Part shown: positions 3,855-62,504 of the stretch, in pieces
How positions within the stretch are numbered: the first letter of the stretch is position 1
Layout: each line of letters begins with the position of its first letter
Sequence record: MH816966
DNA from: Escherichia phage FEC19
Direction: 5' to 3' (one strand)
Length of the DNA stretch: 64,000 bases
Translations under genes and position numbers: made by a program
Notes under the pieces: model-generated
Told to the model about the DNA's origin: nothing
Seen by the model: the letters and a program-made list of their open reading frames with translations, nothing else
Database searches by the model: none

Positions 3855-4183
3855 GATGCATCCTTAGTTGGATAGAATTTAGGGTTGTTCTTATAGAATG
3901 CCTTGAGCCATGCCTTTGCTTCGGCGATGCTGCTGAACTCTTCCTTGGAGAGTCCGGTGCGGTCCTCGCCTGCGACCTTGAAATGGATGCGCACCTTGAG
4001 CCGAAGGTTGGTTGCTCTCGCGTAGTGGCCTTCATAGCCGTCATGGTTGAGACTTACTATCGCGGCGAGCATCTCGCAATCTTCTTTATCGGGATTGCCG
4101 CTGTAACAAGTCGGCCAGCCGCGACGTTGGAATGACCTGTATTGGCCTGTTGGCTCAGGGTCCACGTACCATTTCAATTTCAT
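3851..4183 (-). CDS. hypothetical early protein
   Basis: 110-aa ORF, start overlaps upstream stop. Confidence 0.5.
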   Translation of the reverse strand: MKLKWYVDPEPTGQYRSFQRRGWPTCYSGNPDKEDCEMLAAIVSLNHDGYEGHYARATNLRLKVRIHFKVAGEDRTGLSKEEFSSIAEAKAWLKAFYKNNPKFYPTKDAS

Positions 4184-4503
4184 TCGAATTTCTCCGTTTC
4201 TTTAATGCACTGTAACACTTCTTCAAGGCCCACTTCAACTTGAACATCGCTGTGACGCATCTCATCAATGAAGTCATCTTCACAGCGTATCGGGTTGTGC
4301 ATCGTTAATATTTCAAATACCTTGACGTGACTTACCAAAGGCAGAAGGTGCTTCCTTACTAGTTTGATCAAAACATCGTGGGAGTCTTTGTCTTTTAATT
4401 CTGATTCAATATTGTTTTCTTCACAGAAAAGTGACACAATGTCGCCATCCATGAATCCGAACTTAGATGCAAGCGAACGCGCCTGCAAGTGAAGAGTTTT
4501 CAT
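4180..4503 (-). CDS. hypothetical early protein
   Basis: 107-aa ORF, overlapping start/stop with neighbours. Confidence 0.5.
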   Translation of the reverse strand: MKTLHLQARSLASKFGFMDGDIVSLFCEENNIESELKDKDSHDVLIKLVRKHLLPLVSHVKVFEILTMHNPIRCEDDFIDEMRHSDVQVEVGLEEVLQCIKETEKFE

Positions 4504-4841
4504 TTGACCTTCTCCAATTGGAATCTTGCTTCTGGAAAGCCTGCGACAAACATGTCACGGCCCTCGACATCACGCTTCACGAACCAACGCATTCCGCTGA
4601 CTACCGTGAAGACAATTTGCCTTCCATCAATAATAAGTCCTTTTGCCTCATAAAGCAAATAAGTCTGACCGACTTTGAAGCTTAACATATCCTTGCTTGT
4701 GCTGGTGCACTTGAGCCGCCACTGGGTGAGATTTGATTCGCTTGCTTCGATGTCAACAACCTTACCGCGCAGCGACGATGTGCGCTGAAGCTCTTGCATT
4801 TGCTCGTCGAACGTGAGTTCACGGCCTTCTTGCTCTTCCAT
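4500..4841 (-). CDS. hypothetical early protein
   Basis: 113-aa ORF. Confidence 0.5.
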   Translation of the reverse strand: MEEQEGRELTFDEQMQELQRTSSLRGKVVDIEASESNLTQWRLKCTSTSKDMLSFKVGQTYLLYEAKGLIIDGRQIVFTVVSGMRWFVKRDVEGRDMFVAGFPEARFQLEKVK

Positions 4842-5341
4842 TATTCCTCCACGACGCGATAAGCAATGATGTCATAAACGCTTCCGTTGTGCTGCCACAG
4901 CCATCCTTCTGAATTGGATGAATAAGAAGACTTCTCTTCATTCCTCCACATCAACATGACCTTCTTACCAGGCACCGGATTCTTGCCGCCAGCCCATTCA
5001 ATCCAACCTTCATGAGATTCTTCGGGCTTCTTCAAGTGCTCATGCTTCTCACCGATGTGGGCGACAGGTTGACGGCTTCCGTAATAGAATGCCAACGCAA
5101 CGTCGTAGGATGGATGGGTGTTGGATAAGCAAATGTCATCACACCAAAGCTCCATGGTGCGCGACTTAAGCGTCATCATATTAGTATACCACTCGATGGT
5201 GTAGTGGTCGTTAAGGTTGCCGACAATATAGAAGTTGCGGCAAAAGTGCGCAGCGTCATCCGACTTCTCGCGGCTATAGCTTCTGATTGCGCCTGCCTTT
5301 ACAGCCATTTCCAATACTGCTTCGAGTTGTTCGATTTTCAT
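4841..5341 (-). CDS. hypothetical early protein; C-terminal domain paralogous to 3212..3637
   Basis: C-terminus WAGGKNPVPGKKV...DIIAYRVVEE. Confidence 0.55.
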   Translation of the reverse strand: MKIEQLEAVLEMAVKAGAIRSYSREKSDDAAHFCRNFYIVGNLNDHYTIEWYTNMMTLKSRTMELWCDDICLSNTHPSYDVALAFYYGSRQPVAHIGEKHEHLKKPEESHEGWIEWAGGKNPVPGKKVMLMWRNEEKSSYSSNSEGWLWQHNGSVYDIIAYRVVEE

Positions 5342-5583
5342 TTCTTTACTCCTAGTTCAATTTGATAGCCGATTGACAATTCATTTTCGCCGATGTTGAA
5401 TGCATCAACGGGCTGCGACATCACCGCCTTTAAATATACCTTCTTGCGCCGCTTTGCCTTGTACAAACAACGGTCGCCGCTGCGGTTGTAGATGTTAAGC
5501 CAGGTGCGCTTACTGATCTTATAAGGCACATGCGGCTTGATGAATAATAAACGGGCCTTAAGATTGGATGTCATAGTATTCAC
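5338..5583 (-). CDS. hypothetical early protein (basic)
   Basis: 81-aa ORF. Confidence 0.4.
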   Translation of the reverse strand: MNTMTSNLKARLLFIKPHVPYKISKRTWLNIYNRSGDRCLYKAKRRKKVYLKAVMSQPVDAFNIGENELSIGYQIELGVKK

Positions 5584-5882
5584 TTCCCTCCAAACGTTGC
5601 AACACGGATGTCGCGACGCGAAAAAGTCAGAACAGTGTCAAGGCTGCCAGCACAGGTTATGAATATATCGTCTGCAACAAGGTCATACCCGCCGACGCAA
5701 AGAATAAATGTGTCATCGCTATTCTTTAATAGCATGATTGCTGCAACACCGTCCTTTTTATTCTTAAAGAAGAATACTGGCTCACCGCCTTCTTGCGTCT
5801 CCTTGAACTCTTTAATTGCACCACAGTTCACGGCTTCTTGCAAAGCATTCAAAACCTTTTTCTTCATTGCTTCGTTACTCAT
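5580..5882 (-). CDS. hypothetical early protein (start at internal Met MSNEAM)
   Basis: AAAGGAGA RBS 7 nt upstream of ATG at 5880-5882; the longer ORF would overlap the promoter. Confidence 0.5.
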   Translation of the reverse strand: MSNEAMKKKVLNALQEAVNCGAIKEFKETQEGGEPVFFFKNKKDGVAAIMLLKNSDDTFILCVGGYDLVADDIFITCAGSLDTVLTFSRRDIRVATFGGK

Positions 5883-20710: not shown

Positions 20711-20775
20711 TTTACTTGTGCGTTTCGATGAGTTATATTTATCTCATCGAAACGAAGTCCAAAAAGGATAAATAA

Positions 20776-27628: not shown

Positions 27629-27702
27629 TATCAAAAATAATTTGACTTGTCACGGAAGATGAGTCATAATTACTTCATCGAAACGAAATAGAGGAATACA
27701 AA

Positions 27703-29497: not shown

Positions 29498-30016
29498 ATG
29501 ATAGAAAGAATTGTACCGCTCTTGAAGATTCTGGCCCTTGTTGGCGCGTTTGCCGCTGGATCATACGTTGAAGACCTGCAGCAAACCAACGCATCACTGG
29601 CCAAGGATAATCAATATCTGACATCGCTTAATGAGCGTAAGGACAAGATAAATGCACTCGAAGAGCAAATTGCATCTTTACAGGTTGAATCGGCATCGGC
29701 ATATGAGAAAGGTCGCCAGGAAGCGCAACTGGTTGCTGATGACACTATTGCTCGTTACAAGTCTGGGAATATCAAGTTGCGCGCGCAACTCAGCTGCTCC
29801 CGTGAGTTACTCAGGAGTATGCCCGACTCTGCGACCACTGGACGCCTCTCTATCCCAGAAGGAAACTGTGGACTATCAGAAGAAGATGTCAGTTTTCTTG
29901 TTCAGTTCGCCGCAGAAACAAATCGATTAAAAGAGAAAGTTAATAGCTTGATTGATACTTATAATCAGGCTAAAATAAAAATCGATCAATTCAATGCATC
30001 AAAGGAAAATAAATGA
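29498..30016 (+). CDS. Rz-like i-spanin, putative
   Basis: N-terminal TM segment, coiled-coil periplasmic region, NIKLRAQLSC resembling the Rz RRRLHIKAVC region. Confidence 0.45.
   Translation: MIERIVPLLKILALVGAFAAGSYVEDLQQTNASLAKDNQYLTSLNERKDKINALEEQIASLQVESASAYEKGRQEAQLVADDTIARYKSGNIKLRAQLSCSRELLRSMPDSATTGRLSIPEGNCGLSEEDVSFLVQFAAETNRLKEKVNSLIDTYNQAKIKIDQFNASKENK
29739..29930 (+). CDS. Rz1-like o-spanin embedded in +1 frame of the Rz-like gene, putative
   Basis: MTLLLVTSLGISSC lipobox-like signal then short Pro-containing mature part with second Cys. Confidence 0.4.
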   Translation: MTLLLVTSLGISSCARNSAAPVSYSGVCPTLRPLDASLSQKETVDYQKKMSVFLFSSPQKQID

Positions 30017-30638: not shown

Positions 30639-31601
30639 ATGACAGCATTAAAACCAATGAAGGGTTGCCAACGTAAGCAGATTATCGAGCGCGGCGAGGA
30701 CGTGCCGCTGCCTTGCGGACTGTCATTCAAGGTCGATGGCATACGTGCAATGGCGTATGACAACTTGCCAATGGGCACTTCCGGCATGCCGTTGCGCAAC
30801 GTTCAAATCAAAAAAGAGTTCCTCTTTTTGGGTGAACTAATTCACGGACTTGATGGAGAGCTAATCGACGGCAATCCAAATGATAAGAACGTCATGCAAC
30901 AGGCCTATACTGCATGCATGAATACTGATGCAATCACTAACTTTACATGGTGGGTGTTTGATGACTTCAGCGACCCTGATCTGCCTTTTGAAAAGCGTTA
31001 TGCAAACTATCGAGCTAGAGTTGCTGAGGTCAATCAGCATCTCATCAACCATGGTCGACGCCCATTCCTTCGCGCTCTCGAATATCGAAACATCGAAAAT
31101 ATGGAACAGTACGCGGCGATGCAAATCGAAGCAGACCAGCTTGGATATGAAGGCTTGTATGGCAAGTCTTGGACGGGCAAATACAAGCATGGCCGCGCGA
31201 CGCCGAAGTCACGTGATGTGTGGAAGGACAAGCCGTGGACGGATGAAGAAGGATTGATCATAGACTTCGTTGAGATGATGGAGAACAACAACGAAGCATT
31301 CATTGACGAATTGGGTCGCACCAAGCGTTCAAAAGAGGCTGAAGGTTTAGTTGCAAAAGGATACCTTGGCTCATTCGTAGTCGTCAATCCGAAATATGTG
31401 GATGAGAAAGGTGAAATGATTCCTTTCCGCGTATCCGCTGGTTCAATGCCTATGGCAGAGAGAAAAATGCTTTGGGAGAATCGCGAGAACTATCGCGATA
31501 AATATCTAACGTATAAATTCTTTAACTTCGGCATTGTTGATGTGCCGCGCTCTGCTTTGTATAAATGCTTCCGTGATATTACCGATATGGAGTATTTTTA
31601 A
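30639..31601 (+). CDS. ATP-dependent DNA ligase
   Basis: Motif I FKVDGIRA (KxDG), DGELI, EGLYGK downstream. Confidence 0.7.
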   Translation: MTALKPMKGCQRKQIIERGEDVPLPCGLSFKVDGIRAMAYDNLPMGTSGMPLRNVQIKKEFLFLGELIHGLDGELIDGNPNDKNVMQQAYTACMNTDAITNFTWWVFDDFSDPDLPFEKRYANYRARVAEVNQHLINHGRRPFLRALEYRNIENMEQYAAMQIEADQLGYEGLYGKSWTGKYKHGRATPKSRDVWKDKPWTDEEGLIIDFVEMMENNNEAFIDELGRTKRSKEAEGLVAKGYLGSFVVVNPKYVDEKGEMIPFRVSAGSMPMAERKMLWENRENYRDKYLTYKFFNFGIVDVPRSALYKCFRDITDMEYF

Positions 31602-31676
31602 GACACTAGATAAATAATTGGTGCGGATAATCTATCGCGTTGTTTTATAGAATTTAATATACAGTGTATACATAAA

Positions 31677-31701
31677 GCCGGAAATCTCCGGCTTTTCTTT
31701 T
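31677..31701 (+). terminator. intrinsic terminator after ligase
   Basis: gccgga aatc tccggc then ttttctttt. Confidence 0.65.
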
Positions 31702-31777
31702 ATTTACCTTTCGCCTTATTTACTTTCAAAACCTTCGGCCTATACTATTAATATTCGTAATCAAAAGGTGAATTATA

Positions 31778-32320
31778 ATGAAATCGAAAACTTTAAAGAT
31801 TGTTTTGATCACCATCATGGCTATGCTGACAGTCTTGTTCTTCACCAAAAGTGCAGCGGCTGAAAGTATGTTTACGCCGCCAAATAGTAATGCCAAAGTG
31901 TTAACGAGATATTTTAACAACGGCCAATCGTTCGAATTTTGCTGGAACAAATATGATGTGATAAAGGAAAGGTTTGATAAGGAAAAGATGTGCGTAATGA
32001 ATGATCGCGGTCGCCAAGTCGTTTCGTTTGTGTTCGGAATGTCAATTGCAAAAGTTGATGCCGCTGAAATCGTTGTCAGGTATAATACATTGGACAGCGG
32101 CCTTGTCGACAAGACATACCCTGTTGCAGTAGACAGCAGGACAGGCGGCGCACTCATACTCACTCCAGAAGATAAATCAGATGTCGTTAACATGCTCATC
32201 AACAGCAAAGACGTAATCGTGTTTTATCATGTTGAAGGCGTATCAGACTACCAAATGGCCTACTATCCACTGCCCTTAAGAGATGCTTCAGGTAATGTTA
32301 AGACACAGGATGTGCGTTGA
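31778..32320 (+). CDS. secreted/periplasmic hypothetical protein (signal peptide)
   Basis: MKSKTLKIVLITIMAMLTVLFFTKSAAAE. Confidence 0.5.
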   Translation: MKSKTLKIVLITIMAMLTVLFFTKSAAAESMFTPPNSNAKVLTRYFNNGQSFEFCWNKYDVIKERFDKEKMCVMNDRGRQVVSFVFGMSIAKVDAAEIVVRYNTLDSGLVDKTYPVAVDSRTGGALILTPEDKSDVVNMLINSKDVIVFYHVEGVSDYQMAYYPLPLRDASGNVKTQDVR

Positions 32321-32547
32321 CATGGGTGGTAGTTATGCAGAAAGATTTGGAAGAAAACAAAAGGCTGAAAAAGGCTTTGACGTCTCAAATCTTGTCCCTG
32401 TTGGTAAAGCTTATTGGGGAGTCAATTAGCAACAAGGTGGCACGGGCCGCGATTGTTGGCGTGATTGGCATGGCGGGGTATTACTTCGACTTGCCAGACA
32501 TTGATACAAGTTCCGCGCCGCCAGTCCAGGTTGAAGCCGTGAAATAA
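32317..32547 (+). CDS. small membrane protein (one TM), possible holin or lysis/exclusion factor
   Basis: AAIVGVIGMAGYYF hydrophobic segment; adjacent to endolysin. Confidence 0.35.
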   Translation: MTWVVVMQKDLEENKRLKKALTSQILSLLVKLIGESISNKVARAAIVGVIGMAGYYFDLPDIDTSSAPPVQVEAVK

Positions 32548-32551
32548 ACAA

Positions 32552-32571
32552 AGGCCCATATGGGCCTTTTT
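32552..32571. terminator. bidirectional intrinsic terminator between converging blocks
   Basis: aggccca ta tgggcct flanked by A-run and T-run. Confidence 0.65.
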
Positions 32572-32572
32572 C

Positions 32573-33217
32573 TTACATAACTGCTAGTGCATCCTTGTAA
32601 CGCTTCCGTCGCAAATCCCCATGGTTAGCCGTATTCGGCGCGGCCCCGTTAATCCGCTTCACGGTCGAATCAAATGCACCCGCATCGGCAAGTGGAATGC
32701 AACCGCTGTTCTTGAAGAACCACGCTGCGCTGTCAGCGATGTATTTCGGCTCAGTCAAAATGTCAGGGTTATTCAAGGCGTCATACCCTGATTGCTTTGA
32801 ATACTCTGCATAGTTATCCTTTCCAGTCAGCTGAATGGCACCACGGCCACGGTACTTCCAACCGTCGCCAGATGCTACCGAACCATTTCCCATTCGGTTT
32901 GCATATGTATTATTGGCGATTTCCATTGGTTTACGGGCAATCGACAACGCCAAGGAGTTTGGTGCGCCACCGAAACGACCGCTGACGCTGTAACGGCTAG
33001 GCCACGTGTTGGCAAGACCCTGTGCAGAGTAGTTGAGATTTTCCACAAATGTTCTCAAGCTGCCTGTCTCTACTCCTACGTTTGCAAGGAATGCCGCGAT
33101 GGCATTCTTGCTTTTGATTCCGTAGTGCTCACAAGCCTGCTTGAAAGGGTCCACCCATTTCTCTGCGACATCCATGCTGCATCCGGTCCCTTTAGATATT
33201 ACGTTTGCATTAATCAT
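32573..33217 (-). CDS. endolysin, glycoside hydrolase family 19-like
   Basis: AIAAFLANVGVETGSL and GRGAIQLTG motifs typical of GH19 lysins. Confidence 0.75.
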   Translation of the reverse strand: MINANVISKGTGCSMDVAEKWVDPFKQACEHYGIKSKNAIAAFLANVGVETGSLRTFVENLNYSAQGLANTWPSRYSVSGRFGGAPNSLALSIARKPMEIANNTYANRMGNGSVASGDGWKYRGRGAIQLTGKDNYAEYSKQSGYDALNNPDILTEPKYIADSAAWFFKNSGCIPLADAGAFDSTVKRINGAAPNTANHGDLRRKRYKDALAVM

Positions 33218-54545: not shown

Positions 54546-54683
54546 TCAGTGAATATTAAAAAGCACTCCAGCAACTAAAACGCCAATCAGCATCGAGTCG
54601 TAAACAGCCCATTTCCAAGAAAGCAAAGAGTTGCAATTAATATTTCGCACTTTAACGTAACGTGACTGAATAATCTTTTGCAT
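54546..54683 (-). CDS. small membrane protein (45 aa, C-terminal TM), not in ORF track
   Basis: AAGAGGA RBS; MQKIIQSRYVKV...MLIGVLVAGVLFNIH. Confidence 0.35.
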   Translation of the reverse strand: MQKIIQSRYVKVRNINCNSLLSWKWAVYDSMLIGVLVAGVLFNIH

Positions 54684-62162: not shown

Positions 62163-62504
62163 ATGAACAACACTTTATCACAACTGCTAATCTGGACTAT
62201 CGCCGCTATCATCGGCACCGTCATTATGATGTCAAGCGCAAAGGCGCAAACTGATATTTGCGGCAGACTTATTTCTGAGAATGGCGAGATTTATTATGGC
62301 AACTCAAAAGGCGATTATATATCACCTGAAGTTTGCGCTCAGAAGAAGGCGGAAATGCAAAAGCAGTATCATGAAGATCAATCCATATCTCAGGCCGCGC
62401 TGATTGAATTAAGTATATCAGCCATCATCTTTCTGATCGTTTTTATGCTCATTATTAAACCAAATAATGACAGCAACCGTCATATTCCTCTCAAAAGAAA
62501 TTAA
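62163..62504 (+). CDS. membrane protein with N-terminal signal/TM and C-terminal TM
   Basis: AAAGAGG RBS 5 nt before ATG; hydrophobic segments at both ends. Confidence 0.4.
   Translation: MNNTLSQLLIWTIAAIIGTVIMMSSAKAQTDICGRLISENGEIYYGNSKGDYISPEVCAQKKAEMQKQYHEDQSISQAALIELSISAIIFLIVFMLIIKPNNDSNRHIPLKRN

Follow-up and report, generated by a model that had tools for sequence, protein, structure and literature searches.

The closest experimentally studied relative of the small gene described here is PA1-LRP, the 'lysis-related protein' (ORF13) of Pantoea phage PA1 (Front Microbiol 2024, PMC11538084). Production of this protein in E. coli lowered growth by 13-20%, caused leakage of beta-galactosidase and resulted in 24.7% dead cells, while its fusion to the homologous GH19 endolysin (Lys-LRP) decreased the OD by 69% and strengthened killing (PMC11538084). 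These tests comprised over-expression, endolysin fusion and 24-h cultures, and the toxicity observed was slow and mild, as distinct from holin-type triggering; on the basis of TMHMM, residues 40-60 of PA1-LRP were described as a 'hydrophobic region', TMDs being named for PA1-LVP only (PMC11538084). A second relative, gp48 (ORF47) of Pseudomonas phage 14-1, was mapped by ONT-cappable-seq to a monocistronic unit, TU021, with its own TSS and TTS, and was called 'moron-like', its G+C being lower than that of its flanks.

Parallels of another kind are offered by T4, in which RI possesses an exported periplasmic domain and RIII is an 82-aa cytoplasmic helical protein. Both RI/RIII and Spackle/Imm combine, in a virulent myovirus, one protein exported to the periplasm with a small partner located in the membrane or the cytoplasm, an arrangement that the gene pair considered here would share. 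The resemblance does not extend to sequence or fold, for which no similarity to RI, RIII, Spackle or Imm was found in either protein, the first of the pair being predicted as all-beta and IalB-like.

The window analysed, a stretch of 64,000 nucleotides from Escherichia phage FEC19 (MH816966), belongs to a Wifcevirus, a myovirus of E. coli, and is 99.7% identical to phage AV128. Two plus-strand genes are found at its convergence point with the endolysin gene: ORF A (31778..32320; vBEco4M7_66, Bas99_0034, CPT_Mansfield_054), encoding the 180-aa precursor of a predicted secreted periplasmic protein, and ORF B (32335..32547; vBEco4M7_65, Bas99_0033, CPT_Mansfield_053), encoding a 70-aa miniprotein of phrog_5165. 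Both are kept in 27 Wifcevirus genomes, and comparison with Mansfield revealed 28.5 synonymous and 16.5 non-synonymous changes in ORF A (dN/dS 0.13) and eight synonymous and no non-synonymous changes in ORF B (dN/dS 0), confirming the two genes, which a previous sequence-only reading had placed at the same coordinates, as real and under purifying selection. Their ribosome-binding sites are AGGTGA (31766-31771) and GGGTGG (32324-32329), respectively. The length of 70-76 aa formerly given for the ORF B product can be narrowed to 70 aa: the 76-aa form would start at an in-frame TTG at 32317, whereas the ATG is used in all GenBank records and is the position to which homologues align, and was for this reason taken as the start. 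Detection in virions, named in the same reading as a ground for refutation, did not occur: mass spectrometry of vB_Eco4M-7 and ECML-117 virions revealed neither protein. Neither gene is listed with the tagged proteins in the part consulted of the vB_Eco4M-7 synthetic-phage paper.

The pair is arranged tail-to-tail with the endolysin gene, 25 nt separating the stop of ORF B from that of the endolysin, so that the genes flank a common terminator and are convergent and not co-transcribed. The hairpin at 32550..32569, 2 nt past the ORF B stop and 3 nt past the endolysin stop, folds with -13.2 kcal/mol on the plus strand and -14.3 kcal/mol on the minus strand (z -4.1 and -3.8), and terminators are annotated on both strands at this site in the Mansfield record, a paired annotation that has similar counterparts in 14-1 and MyoSmar; the bidirectional terminator put forward earlier is thus borne out. 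The upstream edge of the unit is formed by a second plus-strand hairpin, located after the DNA ligase gene (31674..31695), with a nine-pair stem followed by TCTTTTATTT (-13.6 kcal/mol, z -5.6), and the Mansfield record carries a terminator at the equivalent site. Both structures display the features by which intrinsic terminators were recognized, namely a GC-rich hairpin, a U-tract and a stability above that of shuffled sequence. Between the upstream terminator and ORF A we infer a sigma-70-like promoter (31719..31746, plus strand; TTTACT, 16-nt spacer, TATACT), which agrees with the consensus at 9 of 12 positions, a score not above chance alone, and of which the two hexamers, but not the spacer, are conserved in Mansfield. 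Taken with the TSS and TTS of 14-1 gp48, the terminators on both sides and the conserved hexamers are best read as delimiting an autonomous A-B unit. The two genes lie 14 nt apart; the corresponding distance between ORF B and the gene in the position of ORF A is 21 nt in Kyle, 15 nt in PA1 and 10 nt in Carpasina, and in the metagenomic locus L025 the two overlap by 4 nt.

Profile and sequence comparisons assign ORF B to the phrog_5165/PA1-LRP family, along the full length of which it can be aligned. In hmmscan searches against phrog_5165, E values of 1.9e-8, 2.4e-8 and 4.8e-56 were obtained for ORF B, PA1-LRP and 14-1 gp48, respectively, and ORF B is 42% identical to Kyle gp058, 40% to PA1-LRP (the identity of which was established by the match of the published primers to positions 5535-5756 of locus L003) and 38% to Pbunavirus 14-1 gp48. 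Leu15, Leu23, Gly28, Glu29 and Arg37 are invariant in the family alignment. PA1-LRP has the same size as the ORF B product and is likewise encoded by the last gene facing a homologous GH19 endolysin; of the two, PA1-LRP is the one studied by over-expression and as an endolysin fusion. The 14-1 gene is also the last before a convergent endolysin gene, with annotated terminators on both strands, but it stands alone, without ORF A, and its 83-aa product has a longer C-terminal tail.

Members of the family were found in Wifcevirus, Kylevirus, Pbunavirus (about 290 genomes), Myosmarvirus and Carpasinavirus, as well as in three metagenomic lineages; that the family occurs in Wifcevirus, Pbunavirus, Myosmarvirus and Carpasinavirus went unnoticed in the PA1 study (PMC11538084). 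In every B-carrying locus examined (one each from Wifcevirus, Pbunavirus, Myosmarvirus and Carpasinavirus, two phages of Kylevirus and the metagenomic loci L022-L025), the gene is the last of the ligase strand and faces a GH19 endolysin gene. Unlike this constant position, the neighbouring spanin slot is occupied by different genes in different lineages. Judged from this distribution of homologous sequences, B belongs to the core gene set of every PB1-like genus; Luteibacter phage Pluto carries no B. A scan of IMG/VR with the B profile returned mainly genomes matching isolates already seen, together with a few metagenomic contigs, and no match to ORF B was obtained in Pfam, NCBIfam or PADLOC. 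The Center for Phage Technology annotators gave the gene no name in Mansfield and MyoSmar.

Two helices are predicted in the ORF B product. The first, amphipathic helix (residues 13-28; 32371..32418, plus strand) ends in the invariant Gly28-Glu29 and has a hydrophobic moment of 0.33-0.52 across eight lineages. The second (residues 38-52; 32446..32490, plus strand) is short, Gly/Ala-rich and hydrophobic, and constitutes a putative N-in/C-out span: 14 uncharged residues (AAIVGVIGMAGYYF) lie between the invariant Arg37 and Asp52, the latter conserved in four of the six aligned lineages. In all eight lineages examined this helix has a mean hydrophobicity of 0.51-0.73 and a low moment of about 0.2, and the flanking charges fit an N-in/C-out orientation, with a net positive N-terminus and a net negative, Pro-rich C-tail. 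On the other hand, neither its KD value over 19 residues (1.34) nor its summed value on the Hessa scale (7.0) reaches the classical TM thresholds; on the latter scale, lambda S and T7 gp17.5 give 4.3-5.3. The single TM helix proposed in the sequence-only reading is thus borderline: the mean hydrophobicity, low moment and charge asymmetry of helix 2 fit a short span, but its length of about 15 residues and its KD and Hessa values are sub-threshold.

The convergent endolysin gene (32573..33217, minus strand), the last of the late tail operon, encodes a GH19-type enzyme with neither a signal nor a SAR sequence, which matches PF00182 (E 2.3e-7) and phrog_181 (E 1.9e-70) and is 55% identical to Pbunavirus endolysins. 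Because it lacks an export signal, a holin is needed in principle. An Rz-like i-spanin gene (29498..30016, plus strand; phrog_1327, E 1.4e-26) with an embedded o-spanin gene (29652-29930) is located 1.8 kb upstream on the same strand as A-B, and the Mansfield and Bas99 records label both as spanins. Neither Bas99 nor the 13-kb stretch of Mansfield examined carries a holin annotation, and no holin has been convincingly assigned in any PB1-like genus. The 201-aa three-TMD and 145-aa membrane proteins of Pbunavirus type, both 'holin' candidates, have no homologue in Wifcevirus. ORF B adjoins the endolysin gene, as in a lysis cassette, although in convergent orientation, and resembles canonical holins (lambda S105, T7 gp17.5, T4 T) in its small size, its proximity to the endolysin gene, its charged hydrophilic C-terminus and its Gly/Ala-rich, weakly hydrophobic helix. 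It differs from them in its single stretch of about 15 residues, in its convergence with the endolysin gene and in the lack of any sequence or profile match: it falls in no holin family, the best holin PHROG being phrog_6384 (E 0.15), with no match in Pfam or NCBIfam. A relationship to the SPN1S holin, the partner of a related endolysin, was also considered and discarded (hhalign probability 0.04%). By analogy with PA1-LRP, ORF B can be regarded as a candidate for the missing holin of PB1-like phages. The link to lysis suggested in the sequence-only reading is supported weakly, and for B alone, by the PA1-LRP family and the endolysin-facing core position; A is attached to B by operon linkage.

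The ORF A product begins with a tripartite signal peptide (residues 1-28; 31778..31861, plus strand), composed of the n-region MKSKTLK, the h-region IVLITIMAMLTVLFF of 15 residues (KD 2.87) and the c-region TKSAAA, followed by Glu, with a predicted signal peptidase I site at A26-x-A28/E29. Ala26 (-3) and Ala28 (-1) are invariant in six homologues while the h-region diverges, in keeping with the cleavable AAA-E signal peptide recognized previously, and secretion to the periplasm by Sec and signal peptidase I is predicted. As no Cys, and hence no lipobox Cys, lies close to the cleavage site, the protein was not assigned as a lipoprotein. The mature domain (152 aa; 31862..32317, plus strand) contains the invariant Cys55 and Cys72 and the conserved motifs RYNTxDxGxxDxxY, YYPxPxR and EDxxD; the polar and aromatic motifs RYNTxDxGxxDxxY and EDxxD seem typical of ligand-binding surfaces, and the domain carries no enzymatic signature. 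Full-length ORF A with a five-sequence alignment was modelled with a pLDDT of only 49, but removal of the signal peptide and addition of three more divergent sequences to the alignment yielded a confident model (pLDDT 90), all-beta with one helix.

The modelled fold appears to resemble IalB and flagellar-ring periplasmic proteins. The likeness to IalB (Bartonella invasion-associated locus B, PDB entry 3dtd) comes with 7% identity and no match to the IalB Pfam model PF06776; a Foldseek search of the PDB with the model turned up nothing beyond noise (TEAD and Kir, for example), and the ORF A profile found nothing among PDB sequences. IalB-domain proteins, such as S. meliloti RgsG, are periplasmic and envelope-associated, and the likeness speaks to the location of ORF A and not to its mechanism. 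Conversely, a phage handle on an IalB-like fold could help to explain IalB-domain proteins.

ORF A represents a tiny orphan periplasmic family: an exhaustive HMMER search with its profile gave six matches among 1.84 billion representatives, and it has no match in Pfam, NCBIfam, PADLOC or PHROGs; in Pfam, even with E values up to 1 admitted, neither ORF A nor the homologue from PA1 was assigned to a family. Homologues are restricted to PB1-like phages of Enterobacterales, occurring in Kylevirus (37-38% identity), in Myosmarvirus (hhalign E 4e-7; Foldseek E 2.6e-7) and in Pantoea phage PA1, directly before PA1-LRP. A 1250-aa repeat protein (P0011, E 1e-5 with the A profile) was rejected as what looks like spurious beta-strand repeat similarity. 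The membrane-anchored proteins encoded at the position of ORF A in Carpasina, L025 and Pluto were likewise not accepted as homologues (hhalign probability 0.3%, and E 0.015 against the MyoSmar type; Foldseek marginal, E 1e-3) and are treated as positional analogues only.

The explanation favoured here, although held with rather less than even confidence, is that A and B form a self-contained envelope/lysis cassette, with B as a holin-like membrane-lesion factor and A as a periplasmic accessory. The unit, in the order terminator, sigma-70-like promoter, A, B and bidirectional terminator, would have the host envelope as its target during lysis. In B, oriented N-in/C-out, a basic N-terminus in the cytoplasm would be followed by an amphipathic helix lying in the plane of the membrane and by a short, Gly/Ala-rich membrane helix; the protein would build up in the inner membrane, giving rise to holin-like lesions through which the signal-less cytoplasmic GH19 endolysin could reach the peptidoglycan; the Rz/Rz1 spanins would then disrupt the outer membrane. 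A would be exported by Sec, cleaved after Ala28 and probably disulfide-bonded, and as a soluble periplasmic beta-domain may serve as a lineage-specific lysis accessory in Enterobacterales hosts, binding an envelope component or the periplasmic tail of B and thereby tuning timing or efficiency. Against this explanation stand, besides the sub-threshold helix 2 and the lack of a match to any holin family, the convergent transcription of B relative to the late endolysin operon and the mild toxicity that over-expressed small membrane proteins of any kind can display. The adjacency to the endolysin gene is not independent evidence, because PB1-like phages share synteny throughout this region, and the tie between A and B is one of operon linkage, Pbunavirus keeping B without A.

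In its most far-reaching form, considered distinctly unlikely, B would represent a new holin class of about 70 aa, combining an in-plane amphipathic helix with a sub-threshold membrane helix and present in the whole PB1-like group, and A an IalB-fold periplasmic regulator. If so, B would be the long-missing holin of these phages, therapeutic Pbunavirus phages included, and A would provide the members infecting Enterobacterales with an RI-like control of lysis timing or lysis inhibition outside the T-even phages; should both prove to be accessory genes of an ordinary kind, only the annotation would be improved. PA1-LRP, the sole protein with an experimental link to lysis, can now be placed in a core family of all PB1-like genera with a defined conserved architecture and transcription context, and the question of what lets the endolysin out becomes a direct experiment.

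Among the alternatives, all of them unlikely, the strongest, also offered in the sequence-only reading, is that the pair forms a superinfection-exclusion or envelope-protection cassette similar to T4 Imm and Spackle, with B in the inner membrane and A in the periplasm, expressed early from a host-type promoter and either keeping secondary phages from injecting DNA or using their tail lysin, or protecting against lysis from without. The stand-alone promoter and terminators, the 'moron-like' 14-1 homologue with its lower G+C, and the absence of both proteins from virions would suit such a cassette, as would a secreted, binding-type beta-domain devoid of enzymatic signature whose distribution is patchy and host-order-specific, as is often the case for accessory exclusion genes; the mild toxicity of PA1-LRP would be expected of any over-expressed membrane protein. 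However, strict conservation of B as a core gene across at least six lineages, with no amino-acid change within Wifcevirus, is unusual for exclusion genes. Furthermore, neither protein resembles Imm, Sp, Cor or Llp or any exclusion or defence model in PADLOC, PHROGs, Pfam or NCBIfam, no exclusion phenotype has been reported, and the G+C of A-B (0.43-0.46) shows no clear deviation from that of the genome.

Less probable still is that A and B have separate functions unrelated to lysis. B would then be a small, mostly cytoplasmic or peripheral helical hairpin with a core middle-phase role, for example in host takeover, replication or as a packaging accessory, and A an independent periplasmic effector that binds Enterobacterales-specific peptidoglycan, an LPS/ECA glycan or an envelope protein, possibly stopping progeny from sticking to debris. 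The hydrophobic stretch of B, which is shorter than a canonical TMD requires and is flanked by the invariant Arg and by the Asp present in four of six lineages, would be compatible with such a hairpin, as would the position of its gene, which closes the replication-gene strand and not the late operon; the motifs of A and the periplasmic, envelope-associated nature of IalB-domain proteins would fit an independent binding function. Nevertheless, this alternative leaves unexplained the membrane permeabilization by PA1-LRP, the N-positive/C-negative charge asymmetry of B in all lineages and the close linkage, within one operon, between B and the genes in the A position.

The least probable of the alternatives is an antiholin pair similar to T4 RI and RIII, in which A, periplasmic, and B, mainly cytoplasmic, would restrain a separate holin and set or delay lysis. 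The topologies of A and B would parallel those of RI and RIII, and the restrained holin could be a further strong membrane protein of Wifcevirus, for example the 113-aa two-TMD protein encoded at 62163-62504. In Carpasina and L025 the A-position gene and B are immediately preceded by the gene for a protein of 109-112 aa with hydrophobic, TM-like stretches, as assessed by eye. The combination that marks an RI-type antiholin, similarity to RI in fold or sequence together with a cognate holin bearing a periplasmic domain, was not found for A. A virion-protein role was rejected on the basis of the mass spectrometry data and the export of A, and a foreign origin of A-B, judged by local G+C, was dropped. 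Other possible holins encoded in the window are the two-TMD protein at 62163-62504 and a 45-aa protein at 54546-54683.

ORF A (31778-32320, + strand, 180 aa) and ORF B (32335-32547, + strand, 70 aa) are each preceded by a good ribosome-binding site, and their substitution pattern relative to phage Mansfield identifies both as real protein-coding genes: in ORF A, 28.5 differences are synonymous and 16.5 are not (dN/dS 0.13, compared with 0.07 for the endolysin), and in ORF B all eight are synonymous. An alternative in-frame TTG start of ORF B at 32317 would yield 76 aa; the start is ATG in all records, and homologues from other genera align to this ATG. Across 31600-32600, identity reaches 99.7% with Escherichia phage AV128, 99.4% with WFC and with ManiWeber_Bas99 and about 93% with the WFH/Mansfield/ECML-117 subgroup, all of which belong to the genus Wifcevirus, comprising ~68-kb E. 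coli/Shigella myoviruses distantly related to the Pseudomonas PB1-like phages. In the annotated records among 27 Wifcevirus genomes (five of the 27 lack annotation) neither ORF is given a function, the usual label being 'hypothetical protein', and both were left unannotated in the record of Shigella phage CWP003.

An intrinsic terminator (31674-31695, + strand; -13.6 kcal/mol, z -5.6) lies directly 3' of the DNA ligase gene, and a hairpin at 32550-32569, between the ORF B stop and that of the minus-strand endolysin gene, is stable when read from either strand (-13.2 and -14.3 kcal/mol, z ~-4). The Mansfield record has terminators annotated on each strand at the latter site, in agreement with the bidirectional terminator common to ORF B and the endolysin that had been proposed in the sequence-only reading. 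A candidate sigma-70-like promoter (TTTACT-16-TATACT, 31719-31746, + strand) is a match that, alone, is not above chance; both hexamers are unchanged in Mansfield, while the spacer varies. The resulting terminator-promoter-terminator structure around ORF A and ORF B agrees with the layout of TU021 of Pseudomonas phage 14-1, which was found by ONT-cappable-seq to hold gp48 alone, with its own start and stop, and was termed moron-like by its authors.

ORF B is a further member of a family already reported but barely characterised, matching phrog_5165 (E 1.9e-8), which carries no function label. Homologues were detected by tblastn in Pantoea phage Kyle, at 42% identity, and in ~290 Pbunavirus genomes at 38% (for example 14-1 gp48/ORF47), to which profile searches add MyoSmar gp052, an unannotated ORF of Xanthomonas phage Carpasina and several metagenomic lineages. 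The gene order at every homologue locus examined is ligase, optional gene(s), B and a convergent GH19 endolysin gene, with terminators annotated at the B/endolysin junction in 14-1 and MyoSmar. Eight lineages have a common layout, consisting of an N-terminus of net positive charge, an amphipathic helix that closes with an invariant Gly-Glu, a short basic loop with an invariant Arg at its end, a ~15-residue helix that is hydrophobic, of low moment and rich in Gly/Ala/Ser, and a Pro-rich, net-negative tail, which fits a putative N-in/C-out bitopic miniprotein. The single TM helix proposed earlier is made plausible by this layout, but is not established, since the span is short and its KD over 19 residues (1.34) is under classical thresholds.

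In Carpasina (MH059633), the homologue at L010 3932-4177 (+ strand; hmmsearch E 8e-26) shares 17 nt with the 3' end of the lytic-enzyme gene. No ORF B was detectable in the 8-kb locus of the PB1-like Luteibacter phage Pluto (L009), where the sole gene between the ligase and lysozyme genes (4042-4998, - strand) encodes a 318-aa membrane-anchored protein and overlaps the lysozyme gene 3' end by 34 nt.

The N-terminus of ORF A (MKSKTLK, a 15-residue hydrophobic core and TKSAAA-E) has the features of a textbook tripartite Sec signal, and in six homologues A26 and A28 (positions -3 and -1) are invariant while the h-region drifts; at sequence level, the earlier assignment of a signal peptide with a cleavage-like AAA-E site is thereby upheld. 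Together with the cysteines C55 and C72, invariant in the same homologues, these features support a predicted cleaved, exported protein with a periplasmic disulfide. ORF A represents an uncharacterised orphan family. A word-indexed search of 5.8 billion proteins returned five relatives, six were obtained when 1.84 billion representatives were searched exhaustively with a HMMER profile, and tblastn against 50,697 phage records added only Pantoea phages Kyle and PA1 (Kylevirus, 37-38% identity), with no homologue in Pbunavirus. The full-length model has a pLDDT of 49; that of the mature domain, from an eight-sequence alignment (pLDDT 90.4, pTM 0.83), predicts an all-beta domain with one helix and a possible resemblance to Bartonella IalB. 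Proteins with an IalB domain are exported to the envelope and lack an assigned biochemical role, so that the fold corroborates location, not mechanism. Serratia phage MTx supplies the top BFVD match, a 169-aa uncharacterised protein (E 2.6e-7, TM 0.66), and hhalign against a near-identical 169-aa protein from a metagenomic locus (L023) supports homology (E 4.3e-7). The MyoSmar gene at the equivalent position also encodes a signal peptide and two cysteines. In a 32.7-kb metagenome contig (P0005), a 148-aa ORF A variant is family-like up to roughly residue 122, beyond which its sequence departs in the manner of a frameshift; the assembly may be at fault, or the gene may be naturally disrupted, which would hint at ORF A being dispensable.

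The gap between the A-position gene and B is 14 nt in the window and 10-21 nt in Kyle, PA1 and Carpasina, and the two genes overlap by 4 nt in metagenomic locus L025. The A-position protein of Carpasina, L025 and Pluto comprises an N-terminal membrane anchor, a Pro/Ala-rich linker and a C-terminal domain whose homology to ORF A is not demonstrated. Given this coupling, and since Pbunavirus and metagenomic locus L022 possess B without A, ORF A is best viewed as an accessory, specific to certain lineages, in a unit centred on B.

The GH19 endolysin carries neither a signal nor a SAR sequence, so that a membrane-lesion factor is required. The annotation of Bas99, like that of the Mansfield stretch examined, includes no holin. 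In some Pbunavirus papers 'holin' is applied to a 201-aa three-TMD protein or to a 145-aa protein, and no Wifcevirus homologue of either was found. The 201-aa glycine-zipper protein occupies the slot upstream of MazG in Pbunavirus, Kylevirus and Myosmarvirus (L003 2606-3211 in PA1). From this survey, ORF B is among very few small membrane-like proteins kept wherever the endolysin is kept. The content of the MazG-upstream slot is exchanged between PB1-like lineages, with embedded Rz/Rz1 in Wifcevirus (29498-30016), a separate i-spanin-like protein and o-spanin in Carpasina (L010 303-1230) and a DUF2514 protein in L022 (1405-1956).

The published primers for the 'lysis-related protein' of PA1 (PA1-LRP) match L003 5535-5756, the ORF B homologue, exactly. 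On its own, PA1-LRP lowered the OD of E. coli by 13-20% and caused beta-galactosidase release, with 24.7% of cells dead at 24 h, and a Lys-LRP fusion lowered the OD by 69%, with no Lys-LRP interaction in a two-hybrid test (PMC11538084). These data indicate membrane damage, but are far from a holin assay. The PA1 record (PP537389), flagged UNVERIFIED_ORG and without annotation, is placed in Kylevirus by GenBank and in Chaseviridae by its authors (PMC11538084); its ligase-to-tail-fibre locus is syntenic with that of Kyle.

On the reading that is tentatively favoured, ORF A and ORF B would form an autonomous envelope/lysis cassette, in which ORF B would make holin-like membrane lesions for the cytoplasmic endolysin and ORF A would act as a periplasmic accessory. 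This reading draws its best support from the core status and architecture of B, from the need for a holin and from the PA1 data. Counting most against it are the sub-threshold TM segment, the absence of a holin-family match for B, transcription that is convergent and not shared, synteny of the whole region and the poor quality of the sole experiment. In virions of vB_Eco4M-7 and ECML-117, the endolysin was identified by mass spectrometry, whereas vBEco4M7_65 (B) and vBEco4M7_66 (A) went undetected. An Imm/Spackle-like exclusion pair is unlikely, and unrelated functions of the two genes are somewhat less likely still. Least probable is an antiholin pair of the RI/RIII type that would act on a separate holin. 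Nothing among these observations is categorically new; the pair would allow a concrete, inexpensive test of a lysis step that has yet to be assigned in PB1-like phages.

Two rivals to ORF B as holin were noted. A 113-aa protein (62163-62504, + strand), encoded directly upstream of the T-shaped tail-fibre gene, restricted to Wifcevirus (96-99% conserved) and unnamed in any record, combines a signal-like N-terminus (AKA-Q), a two-Cys segment of ~55 aa, a C-terminal TMD that is very strong, and a basic tail, and is an alternative holin or exclusion candidate. A 45-aa tail-anchored miniprotein of the head-morphogenesis module (54546-54683, - strand) is another universally placed small membrane protein, its positional counterpart of similar architecture being the 46-aa gp22 of Pbunavirus Epa13 (L026 16281-16421, - strand). 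In Carpasina, a 112-aa protein encoded two genes upstream of the B homologue (L010 2825-3163), with hydrophobic TM-like stretches as judged by eye, could be the holin of that phage.

Elsewhere in the window, two near-identical promoter-like intergenic elements (20711-20739 and 27642-27670, both + strand) have the consensus TTKACTTGT-N8-GATGAGT-YATAWT-TAYYTCATCGAA, with an inverted repeat GATGAG...CTCATC straddling the -10 hexamer, and may serve the replication operons downstream as a phage middle promoter or as an operator.
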